DNA from: Escherichia phage ECML-359 | DNA length: 64,000 nt | Reading direction: 5' to 3' (one strand) | Sequence record: OL631482.1 | Part shown: positions 14,204-37,309 of the stretch, in pieces | Layout: each line of letters begins with the position of its first letter | How positions within the stretch are numbered: position 1 is the first letter of the stretch | The notes under the pieces: generated by a model | What the model was told of the DNA's origin: nothing | The model's input: only the letters and a program-made list of their open reading frames with translations | Databases searched by the model: none | Position numbers and translations under genes: made by a program

Positions 14204-14728
14204 TTATGCGAGAACCGTCTTTAAACGCTCTTCAAACTTCCGAAGGAGTACCTGGCGCTCTGCTCTTTGTTTGGTATAGGTTTCAATACGCTCTGAAGTG
14301 AGATTGTATTGTTCATTAACTGATTCCCTCATGAATTCAGGAATCTCTTTACATGCTTTGATTTCATTGAACTTATCAAGCACCGCTTGTTGTTCAGCAA
14401 TCAGACCATCATAATATTGGATATCTGATTTGATGTTTTGTACATCAGATTCAGTAGGCATATTTTTCTTCGCTCTTGTCGCCTGATACTCTGCATTAGT
14501 CTCTCTTGACCAGAACAAAGAGCGGTTTTTGTTGGTGTTTTTATACACATCAACAATACCTACTGAATCAACAGTCACAATCCAGTTCCAGGCGTTTTTA
14601 TAAGTTTGACCACCTGATACTGTAATCTCACCCGCACAAGCAACATCATTAAAGAACTTGCTTTGTGCTTCTGATTTAAAATTACCATTATTGTAATTAA
14701 TCAGATTAAAGATTGATTTAGCTTCCAT
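14204..14728 (-). CDS. hypothetical protein (174 aa)
   Basis: ORF track; promoter cassette immediately upstream. Confidence 0.55.
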   Translation of the reverse strand: MEAKSIFNLINYNNGNFKSEAQSKFFNDVACAGEITVSGGQTYKNAWNWIVTVDSVGIVDVYKNTNKNRSLFWSRETNAEYQATRAKKNMPTESDVQNIKSDIQYYDGLIAEQQAVLDKFNEIKACKEIPEFMRESVNEQYNLTSERIETYTKQRAERQVLLRKFEERLKTVLA

Positions 14729-14764
14729 TTTATTCTCCAGTATTTGGTAACTCAGTATGGGAAC

Positions 14765-14793
14765 ATTATACGTCTATCCCCATACCATGTACA
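14765..14793 (-). promoter_or_regulatory. early promoter candidate (-35 TGTACA, 17 bp, -10 TATAAT)
   Basis: Minus-strand reading TGTACAtggtatggggatagacgTATAAT; conserved leader to ATG 14728. Confidence 0.45.
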
Positions 14794-14796
14794 CAT

Positions 14797-15099
14797 TTAA
14801 TTAAAAGTTCTTTCAGTCTTTTCACCACTGAACCAGACGCTCTTAACGGCTTGCTGGGCGCGATGAAGCTGCTCTGCCATATAAACACCAAGGGCCTCAG
14901 CTTTACGTGCCCTGTGAGCTTCTGCGGCGACTATTTGCAACTTATCCATCATGATAAGAGCTTTACATTTCTCCTTCAGAGCATATCGCTTCTTCTCTTC
15001 TGGGGTTTTGACCATTCCTCTTAACTTGTGCATTTTCAACTTAAAATGGTCAGCAGATTTCAGACATGCCTCAATCATGCCAAGTTCATACTTTTTCAT
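14797..15099 (-). CDS. hypothetical basic protein (100 aa)
   Basis: ORF track. Confidence 0.5.
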   Translation of the reverse strand: MKKYELGMIEACLKSADHFKLKMHKLRGMVKTPEEKKRYALKEKCKALIMMDKLQIVAAEAHRARKAEALGVYMAEQLHRAQQAVKSVWFSGEKTERTFN

Positions 15100-15105
15100 A
15101 ATTCC

Positions 15106-15312
15106 TCACTTGCGACGACGTTTTGGTAATGGTTTAGGGAAGAACATTGCTTTACCTGCAGGGGTCAAAGTCACGCGCAAAGCATTACCAATACCAAGGG
15201 ATGCTTTAACCAGACCTTTGGCTTTTAACTCACCAAATGCTTGACGTTGTTCAGGGTCACGAGTGTTAACCATCAGACCTTTTTCACCAGCAGCTTTGAT
15301 TAATTCTAACAT
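15106..15312 (-). CDS. hypothetical basic protein (68 aa)
   Basis: ORF track; C-terminal KPLPKRRRK; promoter cassette upstream. Confidence 0.45.
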   Translation of the reverse strand: MLELIKAAGEKGLMVNTRDPEQRQAFGELKAKGLVKASLGIGNALRVTLTPAGKAMFFPKPLPKRRRK

Positions 15313-15429
15313 TTTATTCTCCGTTTGTTTATTTGGTAACTCAGTATGGAATCATTATGCATCATGACCATCTGGTTGTACACATATACTAAATAAAAAT
15401 ACTTAATAAAACCATAAAGGAGAAAGTTT

Positions 15430-16176
15430 ATGATTTTATCCGGAAGAACTGTTGATGAACTCAATGAAAAAGTCCAGGCTGCCTTGGCTAATAATTGGTA
15501 TTTGTTTGGTTCTACTATGGTGTTGCCGAATACCCCTACAGATAGCAAAGAGCGTTTTTTCCAAACTATGTCCAGCTCGGAAACTCAGATACCGGGCCCG
15601 CCTGGGCCAAAAGGAGACCCGGGTGTACCAGGACCAAAAGGAGACCCAGGCGGGGATGGAAAGTCTTCTTATCAGATATGGCTTGACTTGGGAAATACAG
15701 GAACTGTTGATGATTTTTTAACTGATACAGCAGGAAAGAGGGAAAAATCCGAGGTGTTTTGGAGTGGTATAAACGTTCTATTAACTAATGGTGTGACGTC
15801 AAACATAATTAGTGTTTTAAAGGGGATTCCGCCGACTGCAGGGACTCTATCTCCGTTTTTTAGAACCACTGATGATAAGTTGTGGCCATATAACCAAGAC
15901 AGAAGCCTAATGTTTAAACTCAACCTTATTGGTAATTTTACAGGAGCCTCGCAAGCTCGAAGTATAACATTAAATTTCGTTGGAACCAACGGAAACACTT
16001 ATATACAGAATCGTCCGGAAAATGCTACAGATATTTTGTCTTTTACAACGTTCTTTAGCATTGATAAAGATGGGGCAATGGCTACCAATGGTACAGCTAT
16101 AACTGTTATGCCAAATGGCGGCAACTTTACAATAACATCTGCATTGTTAGTAGCCGAACAAACAGTGACTTCATAA
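15430..16176 (+). CDS. collagen-repeat protein (248 aa), opposite orientation to surrounding genes
   Basis: Eight Gly-X-Y triplets GPPGPKGDPGVPGPKGDPGGDGKS at residues about 56-79; AAAGGAG SD before ATG 15430; hairpin terminator follows stop. Confidence 0.65.
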   Translation: MILSGRTVDELNEKVQAALANNWYLFGSTMVLPNTPTDSKERFFQTMSSSETQIPGPPGPKGDPGVPGPKGDPGGDGKSSYQIWLDLGNTGTVDDFLTDTAGKREKSEVFWSGINVLLTNGVTSNIISVLKGIPPTAGTLSPFFRTTDDKLWPYNQDRSLMFKLNLIGNFTGASQARSITLNFVGTNGNTYIQNRPENATDILSFTTFFSIDKDGAMATNGTAITVMPNGGNFTITSALLVAEQTVTS

Positions 16177-16183
16177 ACAAAAA

Positions 16184-16199
16184 AGGGCCGTATGGCCCT
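16184..16199. terminator. bidirectional hairpin terminator between convergent genes
   Basis: GGGCCgtatGGCCC with A-run upstream on plus (T-run on minus). Confidence 0.5.
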
Positions 16200-16394
16200 T
16201 AGATTGCACTCCAAAAATTATGGAATCTTATAGTATTGATAGCCCAGTTAACAAACATGCGAGTTTGCTTGGGAGTTGGTTTGCATATGTACTTATTGTT
16301 GATTCGTCTGCCAGTTTCCCGACAGACTGCTTCGAGATACCAGCGCCGACCTTTATTAGGTCTTCCATACGATAAGAAGACCTTGATTTCCTGG

Positions 16395-17435
16395 TTATCG
16401 ATAATAGGAATTGTGGTTGTCAAGATATACCTCCTCAACAAACTTGTCCCAGAACTTCATGTCCACCTTCGCAGGCATACCATTCTTAGCAGCCTGGATG
16501 GCCAGGACTTCAACTTCATCAACAGTATTTTCCAACAGGCCTTGAACTACTTTGAAAGGCATATCACCAGCTTTTATTGCTTTAATAATAGAAGCATTTT
16601 TAAGTGGATAAACCAGGTCACCAGTTTGATAGATTTCCTTCAGCTGATATCCAGCTCGGTAAGCATGACTCAATGCTTTCCAGTCAATACCTTCATTGGC
16701 TTCAGCCTTACGAGCACGTTCACCATATTCGGCATCAAGTTTATTCAGAGATTGCTTGAGCTCGATTAAAGACAGGGTGGTTTGGTACTTACGTCCAAGA
16801 ACAGTATAGAACGTTTGAGGACCTGTTTTCTCATGGTTATGAAATACCCATTCACAGAACTCGTTTTCAGGGAGCCGGTGCTTAATATCTTCTACTTTAG
16901 TTCGACGTTGTTTAATAGAACCATCTTCTTGATAATCGACCCACTGTTCAGGAATCTGGTTAACAATTGTCAGTACACCACGCAGTGCAGCCAATCGAGA
17001 ACCTTTAACACCATATTTGGAAGCTTGCTTACGGACGTACCCCAAATAGGCTTTCATGTTAGTTGTATAGAACCGCGAACGGTTGTCTTGAATAAACTTC
17101 CATACATCTGGTAAATCGGATTTGACTACCAGGTCAGCCGGGGTGTGAATCATATCCAGGGCAACGGTTTCGCCTTCGGCAGCCAGTTTAAAGAAATATT
17201 TCAGACTGAATAATTCATGGTCGATATCGTCTTTTGTGTTTTTGGTAGCCGTGTTATTCGTGTTCAGGTTTGTATGATTCATCGCGGTTCCGAGCAGGAT
17301 ATCTCGCGGATGAGGAACAAAGATTTCTTTAAAATCAACATCAGATTCTGGGGTGCTTGTTCCATAAAGGTGGCTACCGAAGTAGCCTTTCATAATAGTT
17401 TTCATTCTTTGTCCTCGAAGTGGATTACTGGGCAC
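16395..17435 (-). CDS. Pol-beta superfamily nucleotidyltransferase-like protein (346 aa; alternative start near 17405)
   Basis: N-terminal GSHLYGTSTPESDVDF fits hG[GS]x9-13Dh[DE]h, with a further DDIDHE acidic cluster about 45 aa downstream. Confidence 0.6.
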   Translation of the reverse strand: MPSNPLRGQRMKTIMKGYFGSHLYGTSTPESDVDFKEIFVPHPRDILLGTAMNHTNLNTNNTATKNTKDDIDHELFSLKYFFKLAAEGETVALDMIHTPADLVVKSDLPDVWKFIQDNRSRFYTTNMKAYLGYVRKQASKYGVKGSRLAALRGVLTIVNQIPEQWVDYQEDGSIKQRRTKVEDIKHRLPENEFCEWVFHNHEKTGPQTFYTVLGRKYQTTLSLIELKQSLNKLDAEYGERARKAEANEGIDWKALSHAYRAGYQLKEIYQTGDLVYPLKNASIIKAIKAGDMPFKVVQGLLENTVDEVEVLAIQAAKNGMPAKVDMKFWDKFVEEVYLDNHNSYYR

Positions 17436-20443: not shown

Positions 20444-20469
20444 AGCGGAATACTAGTTAGTAACTGTAT

Positions 20470-31461: not shown

Positions 31462-31659
31462 TTAGCATTCGTAAGAGGATGATACCCAAGAGGTACCACT
31501 AATAGTAATACAACCGTTATAAAGCGTGATATGTCGTTCTAAGTCACGAACACCATCAATGTAGATATCAGCTTCTTCGCGTTCTTCTTTACAAATCTGG
31601 ATAACGTTTTCAATAGCTGCCGCGGCAGTACGGATTGCACAATCTAATTCACGAGACAT
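31462..31659 (-). CDS. small protein, C-terminal-Cys paralog family (ends WVSSSYEC)
   Basis: Start moved to MSRELD with TAAGGA SD from upstream stop junction. Confidence 0.5.
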   Translation of the reverse strand: MSRELDCAIRTAAAAIENVIQICKEEREEADIYIDGVRDLERHITLYNGCITISGTSWVSSSYEC

Positions 31660-31667
31660 ATAATTCC

Positions 31668-31949
31668 TTAACATTCAGAAGAGGAGGACACCCAACCGCC
31701 ATTTTCCAGGTCAGTTGTATAGTCATGAGTGTTAACAATAGCCCATTCAGGATGACCATGTTCTTCCCAATGAGCAAGGTCAGCTTTCAAGGCGCCAGGA
31801 GAATAATAGTCACCGCCCATACCGCGAGCAGGGTATATATTAAAATGAGTCTCATATTTGTTTGCGATTTCCTCGGCACGACGAATAGCTTTATGGATAT
31901 CATTTACTGCGTTAGCCAGTTCTTTATTTTTACGGTAATCATTCATCAT
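31668..31949 (-). CDS. small protein, C-terminal-Cys paralog family (ends GGWVSSSSEC)
   Basis: Shares helix AIxx(A/S)EEIA..Y and G(G/A)WVSSS with neighbours. Confidence 0.5.
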   Translation of the reverse strand: MMNDYRKNKELANAVNDIHKAIRRAEEIANKYETHFNIYPARGMGGDYYSPGALKADLAHWEEHGHPEWAIVNTHDYTTDLENGGWVSSSSEC

Positions 31950-31958
31950 AGCGTTTCC

Positions 31959-32249
31959 TTAGCACATTGCCGAAGAGGAGACCCAAGCACCAACTGTAAC
32001 GACACCGTTTTCAACTTCGCCGCCGTTGTTTTCAATTTCATCTTTAAACCACTGGGAGCACTCATAACCGACAGGATAATATGTACGGCCTGAACCATAA
32101 TCACCGGTACCGAATTGGATACCATATTCATCTGCGATTTCTTCACAGTGTTTTTCAATTTCAGAGGTCTTATTTAGAAGAGAATAGATAGCTTTTTCTG
32201 CAGATTTCTCATCATAATACTTGGGGATAGCAATTTCAATTTTATTCAT
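31959..32249 (-). CDS. small protein, C-terminal-Cys paralog family (ends GAWVSSSAMC)
   Basis: First of the tandem array; ATG overlaps upstream stop. Confidence 0.5.
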   Translation of the reverse strand: MNKIEIAIPKYYDEKSAEKAIYSLLNKTSEIEKHCEEIADEYGIQFGTGDYGSGRTYYPVGYECSQWFKDEIENNGGEVENGVVTVGAWVSSSAMC

Positions 32250-37156: not shown

Positions 37157-37233
37157 TGGTCGGGGTGGTGGGATTCTAACCCACAACCTACGGTTTAGAA
37201 GACCGTTGCTCTATACAATTGAGCTACACCCCG
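37157..37233 (-). tRNA. tRNA-Arg (anticodon UCU), CCA encoded
   Basis: Hand-folded cloverleaf: acceptor CGGGGTG/CACCCCG, D stem GCTC/GAGC, anticodon stem ACGGT/ACCGT, loop CTTCTAA, T stem GTGGG/CCCAC. Confidence 0.8.
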
Positions 37234-37235
37234 GG

Positions 37236-37309
37236 TGGCCCCATCCGGACTTGAACCGGAAACCTGCCAGTTATGAGCCGGATGCTCTAACCAATTGAGC
37301 TACAGGGCC
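37236..37309 (-). tRNA. tRNA with CAU anticodon (Met or Ile2)
   Basis: Hand-folded cloverleaf: D stem GCTC/GAGC, T stem TCCGG/CCGGA with TTCAAGT loop, anticodon loop CTCATAA; one anticodon-stem mismatch. Confidence 0.65.

Follow-up and report, generated by a model that had tools for sequence, protein, structure and literature searches.

What is a single gene doing on the opposite strand from the early genes that surround it in a T4-like phage? The question is posed by Escherichia phage ECML-359 (OL631482.1), in a 64,000-nt stretch of which (hereafter, the window) the plus-strand open reading frame (ORF) 15430..16176 lies among genes read from the minus strand. A first-pass annotation made from the letters alone had singled out this ORF as the one convincing plus-strand gene within 43 kb of minus-strand genes, encoding a collagen-repeat protein that might be an acquired fibre or receptor-binding accessory. 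We see about an even chance that the gene encodes a non-essential, late-expressed, homotrimeric adhesion fibre anchored to the capsid; the late timing, trimer formation, capsid attachment, attachment site and adhesive role are the parts of this reading that we infer.

The ATG-started, 248-aa frame is present as annotated, and the good Shine-Dalgarno (SD) sequence ascribed to it is AAGGAG at 15417..15422 on the plus strand, with the GGAG core ending 7 nt before the ATG. The part of the protein ahead of the collagen run measures 55 aa, in agreement with the earlier estimate, and Thr (14.5%), Asn (9.1%) and Gly (9.1%) are indeed frequent in the last 165 aa. Since the product matches PF16532 in Pfam (E 4e-32) and PHROG 1030 (E 2e-67) and full-length homologs are found in 41 phage records, we regard ORF 15430..16176 as a real gene with support far beyond chance, its coding sequence laid out as DUF1737, collagen run, SAYQxW module and knob. 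Its solitary status holds among ORFs of at least 110 aa before 43.7 kb: no other plus-strand ORF of that size in the first 43.7 kb has a PHROG match, and the only one that falls where the large minus-strand ORFs leave room, 31635..32093, is antisense to a row of small minus-strand ORFs. T4 has no plus-strand gene between nrdC.10 and nrdC.11, as expected from the earlier remark that it lacks a counterpart. Over 15000-16600 the window matches Escherichia phage pEC-M719-6WT.2 at 98.8% identity and EAWsc9, vB_YenM_P8, DK-13 and vB_EcoM_RZ at 96-97%; the isolation hosts of close relatives are E. coli and Yersinia, and vB_EcoM_RZ is filed by RefSeq under Straboviridae; Tevenvirinae; Gaprivervirus. 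The window genome is thus that of a Gaprivervirus, a T4-like coliphage.

Residues 1-50 (15430..15579, plus strand) resemble DUF1737 and form the putative capsid anchor of the fibre. Taken in isolation, this domain of the window protein scores 17.6 bits against DUF1737 (PF08410; E 0.0034, gathering score 24), with the RB43-type homolog (27.6 bits) and the homolog P0034 (26.2 bits) lying above the gathering score; Pfam gives 10 of the 11 family members a sub-threshold DUF1737 match, and no family scores higher than DUF1737 with any of the N-termini scanned. When the N-terminal profile was run against 1.84 billion representative proteins it retrieved, beyond its own family, small proteins of 50-64 aa, all of which pass the DUF1737 gathering score. 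Alignment by hhalign to a set made up of 933W NanS-p and six of these gathering-score proteins gave 99.1% and E 4e-19 over 49 columns, a comparison that is partly circular, as six of the seven target sequences came from the query-profile search. The AlphaFold2 (AF2) model of the domain has a predicted local distance difference test (pLDDT) score of 80 and consists of a strand at 2-5, a helix at 8-20 and strands at ~24-32 and 42-48; in BFVD, Foldseek matched it to entries named DUF1737 at TM 0.73-0.84. Because these four routes (Pfam, profile search, hhalign and predicted fold) agree, we assign residues 1-50 to a divergent DUF1737 domain. Searches of PDB for a solved DUF1737 structure, by the N-terminal profile, by the N-terminus of 933W NanS-p and by Foldseek, gave no significant match, and no other DUF1737 copy was found within the 64-kb window.

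The experimental role that has been assigned to DUF1737 comes from Stx phage phi24B. A cryo-electron microscopy preprint of April 2026 describes the DUF1737 of gp84 (residues 2-57) as a helix plus three antiparallel strands, places it in hexameric form on the pore of the hexon at the centre of each capsid face, and names it the capsid-binding domain of the NanS-p esterase (bioRxiv 10.64898/2026.04.10.717836). The N-terminal sequence of 933W NanS-p fits all the gp84 residues named there, i.e. Tyr42, Gly54 and SISSP. Because binding to capsid hexons is the sole experimentally assigned role of DUF1737, the fibre, by analogy, probably sits on the head rather than on the tail. The earlier suggestion of an acquired fibre or receptor-binding accessory stands in part: knob, collagen stalk and late-promoter boxes point to a fibre-like virion accessory encoded by an optional cassette. 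Its leaning towards receptor binding and the tail does not fit an N-terminal DUF1737, which points to the head; the two globular domains had been left unnamed.

A capsid anchor that can be joined to different payloads predicts an N-terminal domain that stays with its genus and a knob that is exchanged, and this is what C6 and AnYang, both Dhakavirus, display: their N-terminal domains are identical, while knob identity to the window protein is 95% for C6 and 68% for AnYang. The knob has therefore been swapped between genera, and genus-bound N-terminus, swapped knob and varied payloads all fit the anchor-plus-payload design. The C6 gene (L004 2764-3519) is a mosaic in which, compared with AnYang (L009), the N-terminus, collagen run and SAYQ module are of AnYang type, and the knob together with the downstream DNA to nrdC.11 is of Gaprivervirus type, with 84-89% DNA identity. 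This points to recombination between Dhakavirus and Gaprivervirus at the knob boundary in C6.

Other payloads follow the same N-terminal domain in P0032, P0034 and P0033. The last of these, a 520-aa protein (L016 8001-9563, ena:ERZ27235407:k119_556), carries two tandem DUF1737-like domains, then repeats of ~30 aa with 'IQWR' and an unrelated C-terminus. Outside T4-like phages, the position that separates the terminase large subunit gene from the portal gene is filled by a knob version of the gene in the 60-kb Klebsiella phage VLCpiS10a and by P0033, directly after the terminase large subunit, in a related metagenomic phage. DUF1737 is mostly a stand-alone small protein without a payload (bioRxiv 10.64898/2026.04.10.717836). 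The fold is also present in BFVD entries from giant viruses (Yasminevirus, Hyperionvirus, Harvfovirus, Terrestrivirus and Edafosvirus), a wide spread for a domain whose sole assigned role is binding to an HK97-type capsid.

Next along the protein comes the collagen-like stalk (15595..15666, plus strand). The eight Gly-X-Y triplets counted earlier are all there, as the uninterrupted run GPPGPKGDPGVPGPKGDPGGDGKS at residues 56-79, which includes two GPKGDP units; Lys-Gly-Asp is known to stabilise triple helices that lack hydroxyproline. The run being short, it scores 17.6 bits against Pfam Collagen PF01391 (cut-off 27.2), and homologs with longer runs pass the cut-off (best E 2.9e-15). The number of triplets is 9 in C6 and AnYang, ~22 in P0009 and 0 in RB43 and VLCpiS10a, and the run is interrupted in PEi20 and fHe-Yen9-01, as would suit a spacer of variable length. 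A tandem-repeat search of the collagen DNA found no array, and we do not attribute the varying length to slippage. The stalk is followed by the SYQIWLDLGNTGTVDDFL module (residues 80-102; 15667..15735, plus strand), a predicted two-helix unit with helices at 80-86 and 93-101 in the full-length AF2 monomer model. This SAYQxW module recurs, often in tandem, after collagen runs in many phage fibre-like proteins, and it is repeated in P0012, P0013, P0014, P0032 and P0034.

The C-terminal domain is a TNF-like knob of the Sf6 type (residues 99-244; 15724..16161, plus strand). The full-length AF2 model was too weak for a fold search, so the knob was identified from its sequence match to PDB 3RWN, and the N-terminus was modelled alone. 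PF16532 is matched at 111.6 bits (cut-off 27) with profile positions 30-175 of 175 covered; 3RWN is matched at E 3e-40 (query 100-244 to chain residues 17-161) and 4K6B at E 5e-40, over the whole domain. We take the knob to be homologous to those of Sf6 and HS1 along its entire length. The Sf6 and HS1 needle knobs are TNF-like jelly-roll homotrimers with three L-glutamates at their interfaces (PMC3741392). The four main L-glutamate contacts of Sf6, E146, K200, S248 and D250, correspond to E108, K163, S210 and D212; across the family alignment E108, K163 and S210 do not vary and D212 hardly does, while secondary contacts differ (Sf6 L255 is M217 and K277 is L239). The ligand-pocket residues are kept across genera at 47-68% overall identity. 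One further family member, P0011, joins the knob to a different N-terminus on a contig with a T7-type RNA polymerase, a context that is uninformative.

When would such a protein be made? A T4-type late-promoter-like box, TAAAAATA, lies at 15394..15401 on the plus strand, 36 nt before the ATG, and matches TATAAATA at 7 of 8 positions. Exact copies of TATAAATA precede the homologs at -30 in C6 and AnYang, at -33 in PEi20 and at -65 in L019, and CATAAATA is found ~30 nt upstream of the RB43 homolog; the upstream DNA cannot be aligned between genera, yet late-promoter boxes recur in five lineages. Matches to TATAAATA with at most one mismatch occur in 2.6% of the 40-nt stretches of the window. On the plus strand the window contains two exact matches (53038 and 59628), both ahead of late structural genes. 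Exact minus-strand matches within the 'early' region lie at 20467, 36700, 39998, 41296 and 43743, and the seven exact boxes in the window are no more than chance predicts. No sigma-70-like plus-strand promoter was found upstream of the gene, nor was a TGCTT MotA-type box seen by eye in the 130 nt ahead of it, and early or middle transcription was rejected on these grounds. Late expression of the gene is, as a deduction from these signals, well supported.

The gene ends against a GC-rich hairpin, AAGGGCC-GTAT-GGCCCTT, at 16183..16200, with predicted folding energies of -15.3 kcal/mol on the plus strand and -18 on the minus strand. The hairpin had been described as a bidirectional terminator that insulates the gene. 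A hairpin at the 3' end there is; canonical bidirectionality, on the other hand, fails, since the U-tract is on the minus-strand side only, where it would serve transcripts from the nrdC.11 side, and on the plus strand the stem is followed by AGAUUGC. Truly bidirectional terminators, with an A-run, a hairpin and a T-run, are those of the RB43 and L019 homologs. UPEC07, P896 and VR7, which do not have the gene, carry a homologous hairpin at the same intergenic site, where it directly adjoins the promoter region of the downstream minus-strand gene. Because relatives without the gene have it, we read the hairpin as an older, pre-existing terminator of early transcripts from the nrdC.11 side, against which the fibre gene was inserted.

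Comparison with the same three phages delimits what was inserted. The breakpoints that had been called for as a check are clean: in blastn alignments, homology to VR7, UPEC07 and P896 breaks off on the left at 15383 and starts again on the right at 16175-16195 (in P896, at 16395), leaving a cassette of late-promoter box, SD and gene (15384..16176, plus strand, i.e. with junctions at 15383/15384 and ~16176) that all three lack. The junction alignment shows this cassette flanked by the early terminator on one side and, on the other, by the -35 region of a sigma-70-like promoter on the minus strand, TGTACA-17-CATAAT, at 15354..15382. This putative promoter abuts the left breakpoint and would serve the minus-strand early genes downstream of it; it was recognised purely by its match to the consensus, and such matches are as numerous in the region as expected by chance. 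Of 47 matching records, almost all from Gaprivervirus genomes, 8 contain the gene in full, and it is not found in VR7, SP18, UPEC07 and P896; because so few of the records have it whole, we consider it dispensable. In Gaprivervirus the slot may be empty (P896), hold one small minus-strand gene (UPEC07) or two (VR7), or hold the plus-strand fibre gene. Among carriers the reading frame is intact and protein identity is 97-100%.

Full-length homologs in the same reversed orientation, 0-2 small genes from nrdC.11, occur in four other lineages, namely Dhakavirus (C6, AnYang), Kanagawavirus (PEi20), Pseudotevenvirus (RB43 ORF128w) and a T4-like metagenomic contig. We therefore take the gene to be an optional cassette, passed around among T4-like phages and confined to a single hot spot. 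That it was acquired, as had been proposed, holds for ECML-359, the source pool being T4-like phages with the gene at the same locus; its composition is not foreign. At 41.4% GC the gene lies at the 73rd percentile, the window having 39.8%, with GC-richness confined to the Gly/Pro-rich stretch, and a recent foreign origin was rejected on the grounds of this ordinary base composition. The RB43 group includes truncated forms (P0029, P0031) and an internally deleted one (P0035). In P0035, a 45-aa protein, the first 29 residues of the N-terminal domain run straight into the final 16 of the knob, a sign of an in-frame internal deletion. All three amount to natural knock-outs of the gene.

Put together, these elements suggest how the fibre might work. 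T4-type late transcription would start at the TAAAAATA box and yield a monocistronic mRNA against the flow of the early genes. The Sf6-type knob would trimerise, with L-glutamate at the three subunit interfaces, and its trimer would set the SAYQxW module and the eight-triplet collagen helix in register. The three DUF1737 domains would then dock the fibre on the capsid shell, comparably to phi24B gp84 at hexon pores and to SPP1 gp12 at hexamer centres. Held a few nanometres off the head, the knob could adhere, weakly and multivalently, to the surface of the host or to polymers around it. Such a role would resemble that of Hoc or of the phi29 head fibres, and infection would not be triggered by the fibre.

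Several observations weigh against a capsid-anchored fibre. The capsid role of DUF1737 comes from a single preprint, and phi24B is a podophage with another major capsid protein and a T=9 shell. The Tyr42 'tooth' of gp84 is not conserved in the ECML-359 protein, the corresponding loop is 2-3 residues longer, and the DUF1737 score of the window protein is below the Pfam gathering score. With its mostly stand-alone occurrence and its presence in giant viruses as well, DUF1737 may be an adaptor of a general kind rather than one specific for capsids. The late-promoter box of the ECML-359 gene has one mismatch, and the confidence of the full-length AF2 monomer is low (pLDDT 60). Finally, carriers such as RZ also encode a Hoc-like protein, and Hoc in T4 occupies the hexon centres; given this protein, the docking site on the head may be elsewhere or shared. 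A broader claim, that DUF1737 is a portable capsid anchor that works on shells as different as a T=9 podophage head and a prolate T4-type head, so that some T4-like phages would carry a second, hitherto overlooked class of head decoration beside Hoc in the form of a collagen-stalked TNF-like knob fibre that binds L-glutamate, is one that we hold tentatively, thinking it somewhat more apt to fail than to hold.

How else could the protein be read? The alternative that survives best, though we judge it unlikely, is an accessory fibre attached to the tail, baseplate or neck, with DUF1737 seated on a tail or collar protein and the knob acting as an auxiliary receptor-binding tip that widens or tunes host range. 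The first knobs of this family came from the end of a tail organelle, and PHROG as well as RefSeq class the family with tail proteins; tail fibres often contain collagen runs and SAYQxW modules (PHROG tail-fibre matches; P0012-P0014), exchange of the knob between genera is reminiscent of receptor-binding tips, and the isolation of close relatives on both E. coli and Yersinia would suit a protein that tunes host range. However, the sole assigned role of the N-terminal domain is capsid binding, and the protein has neither similarity to T4 fibre or baseplate attachment domains nor any other Pfam match. The gene also lies outside the tail-fibre block, and in non-T4 phages it is placed between terminase and portal genes. 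Moreover, in P22 hybrids a swap of the homologous knob left host specificity unchanged, so that in P22/Sf6 the knob did not determine it (PMC3741392).

Slightly less probable again is a late protein that is no stable part of the virion, being released at lysis or cleaved from its anchor to act in solution, where it might coat receptors or debris or bind a ligand of the host or the environment. This would parallel phi24B, which keeps only DUF1737 on its capsid and releases the payload proteolytically; a Ser-rich linker, MSSSETQIP, does follow the DUF1737 domain of the ECML-359 protein, and DUF1737 proteins mostly lack a payload. However, the ECML-359 protein does not contain the SISSP/SSP motifs at which gp84 is proposed to be cleaved, and a collagen stalk of variable length suits a surface spacer better than a soluble factor. 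In the Ackermannviridae phage Sajous1, moreover, a knob-only homolog yielded 16 spectra from caesium chloride-purified virions, the same number as were obtained for the neck and head completion protein (PMC10892097), which favours a place on the virion.

A third role, implied by the name 'tail needle knob' in databases, would be that of a true tail needle or central spike tip, which we consider very improbable. It is favoured by homology in the C-terminal domain only. The name is a domain-level label, and two defining features of a needle fail here. First, there is neither a gp26-type N-terminal plug nor a trimeric coiled-coil shaft: residues 1-102 comprise an alpha/beta domain, the collagen run and two short helices, and besides the knob the only Pfam matches at E<1 are Collagen and DUF1737. 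Second, the gene is found among early genes beside nrdC.11 and not in the tail block of a P22-like podovirus, and it is not essential, most close relatives being viable isolates without it. ECML-359 is moreover a T4-type myovirus with baseplate and tail genes of its own (43.7-64 kb in the window, 124-131 kb in RZ). Least probable of all is a decaying or non-functional remnant that is carried passively, as its patchy distribution and the shortened forms in the RB43 group, by truncation or internal deletion (P0029, P0031, P0035), might suggest, given the intact frame, the 97-100% identity among carriers, ligand-pocket residues conserved across genera and the conserved promoter, SD and terminator signals.

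The surroundings of the gene add some observations of their own. ORF 15430..16176 has an RB69-ORF102c-like gene on one side and nrdC.11 on the other. The nrdC.11 homolog (16395-17435, minus strand) is a constant neighbour of the fibre gene in five lineages and contains an RlaP-type nucleotidyltransferase domain (PF10127, on the L019 ortholog), with no functional link to the fibre gene apparent. Between the hairpin and nrdC.11 lies a small minus-strand ORF, 16199-16441, its stop codon falling within the hairpin region; this ORF, a homolog of VR7ORF100c, corresponds to a 62-aa protein in vB_YenM_P8 (ORF110) and is unannotated in RZ. On the other side, the intergenic stretches 14726-14769 and 15310-15358, each upstream of one of two consecutive minus-strand genes, are ~80% alike in blastn cross-matches and look like repeated units of early promoter and 5' untranslated region. 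Further away, adjacent tRNA-Arg(tct) and tRNA-Met(cat) genes at 37157-37309 on the minus strand are the sole Rfam matches at gathering level in the window.

Part of this picture was already known. Homologs of the knob in T4-like phages, including that of RB43 with its N-terminal extension, were listed in 2013 with 'function unknown' (PMC3741392). In the literature searched we found no earlier description of the extension as DUF1737, of the DUF1737-collagen-knob architecture, of the reversed slot with its late promoter beside nrdC.11 or of a head-fibre prediction, and no proteomics of full-length homologs (RB43 group, fHe-Yen9-01, P8). The phi24B preprint lists as DUF1737 partners an esterase, a beta-lactamase, an isochorismatase and 'other', and mentions neither knobs nor T4-like phages (bioRxiv 10.64898/2026.04.10.717836). 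If DUF1737 does act as a portable capsid anchor, several myovirus proteins annotated as 'tail needle knob' would be head fibres, with stalk length and knob swapped between genera. If a capsid-anchored fibre is what the gene encodes, T4-like heads would carry an optional adhesion fibre beyond Hoc and Soc. This would bear on phage attachment to hosts or mucus, as well as on differences in adsorption and host range among near-identical therapeutic phages in which the cassette is the sole difference. It would also offer DUF1737, a 50-aa anchor that takes a knob, an esterase or other payloads, as a display tag for T4-like capsids. Finally, the Sf6-type knob with its bound L-glutamate would gain a second, genetically dispensable context in which its function can be studied.

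Among known systems, the closest relatives of the C-terminal part are the knobs of Sf6 gp9 and HS1 (PDB 3RWN, 4K6B; PF16532), which the ECML-359 protein resembles over its C-terminal 146 aa (E ~1e-40) and in four L-glutamate contacts. In place of their gp26-type plug and coiled-coil shaft, however, it has DUF1737 and collagen; the host of gp9 is a P22-like podovirus, whereas ECML-359 is a T4-type myovirus, and Lys277 of Sf6 is replaced by Leu239. At the other end of the protein, phi24B gp84 and 933W NanS-p share the DUF1737 of ~50 aa at the extreme N-terminus, with the same predicted helix-plus-three-strand fold. In gp84, as in the ECML-359 protein, this domain is followed by a linker and a payload, and both are called late genes. 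The payloads differ, with a SASA esterase and a lectin-like domain in gp84 and a collagen stalk and knob in ECML-359; gp84 forms hexamers on hexons, while a collagen/knob protein is expected to be trimeric, and the Tyr42 anchor of gp84 is not conserved in ECML-359. The capsid of ECML-359 is of T4 type, unlike that of phi24B, and carriers encode a Hoc-like protein as well.

No sequence relationship links the ECML-359 protein to SPP1 gp12, a very small protein that has neither a globular anchor nor a knob. SPP1 gp12 does provide a precedent for a three-fold collagen protein on a six-fold site, being a short trimer of collagen type whose binding to the middle of the capsid hexamers is reversible (PMC7602432). 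PRD1_P5_C gives weak matches in two family members (E 0.06), and there is no significant sequence similarity to PRD1 P5. In PRD1, a tailless membrane-containing phage, P5 stands at the five-fold vertices and has an N-terminal vertex anchor, a short collagen-like run and a knob. The plan is parallel, with a capsid anchor, a short collagen run and a C-terminal TNF-like trimeric knob, and the knob folds are compared in PMC3741392. T4 Hoc, T5 pb10 and phi29 gp8.5, dispensable head-surface proteins presumed to help in adhesion or dispersal and not in capsid stability (PMC7602432), share the role proposed here; their folds, which are Ig-like or helical coiled coil, are unrelated to that of the ECML-359 protein, and Hoc is a monomer. 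Set beside these systems, the gene product is by inference a DUF1737-anchored decoration protein that carries a new payload on a new type of capsid.

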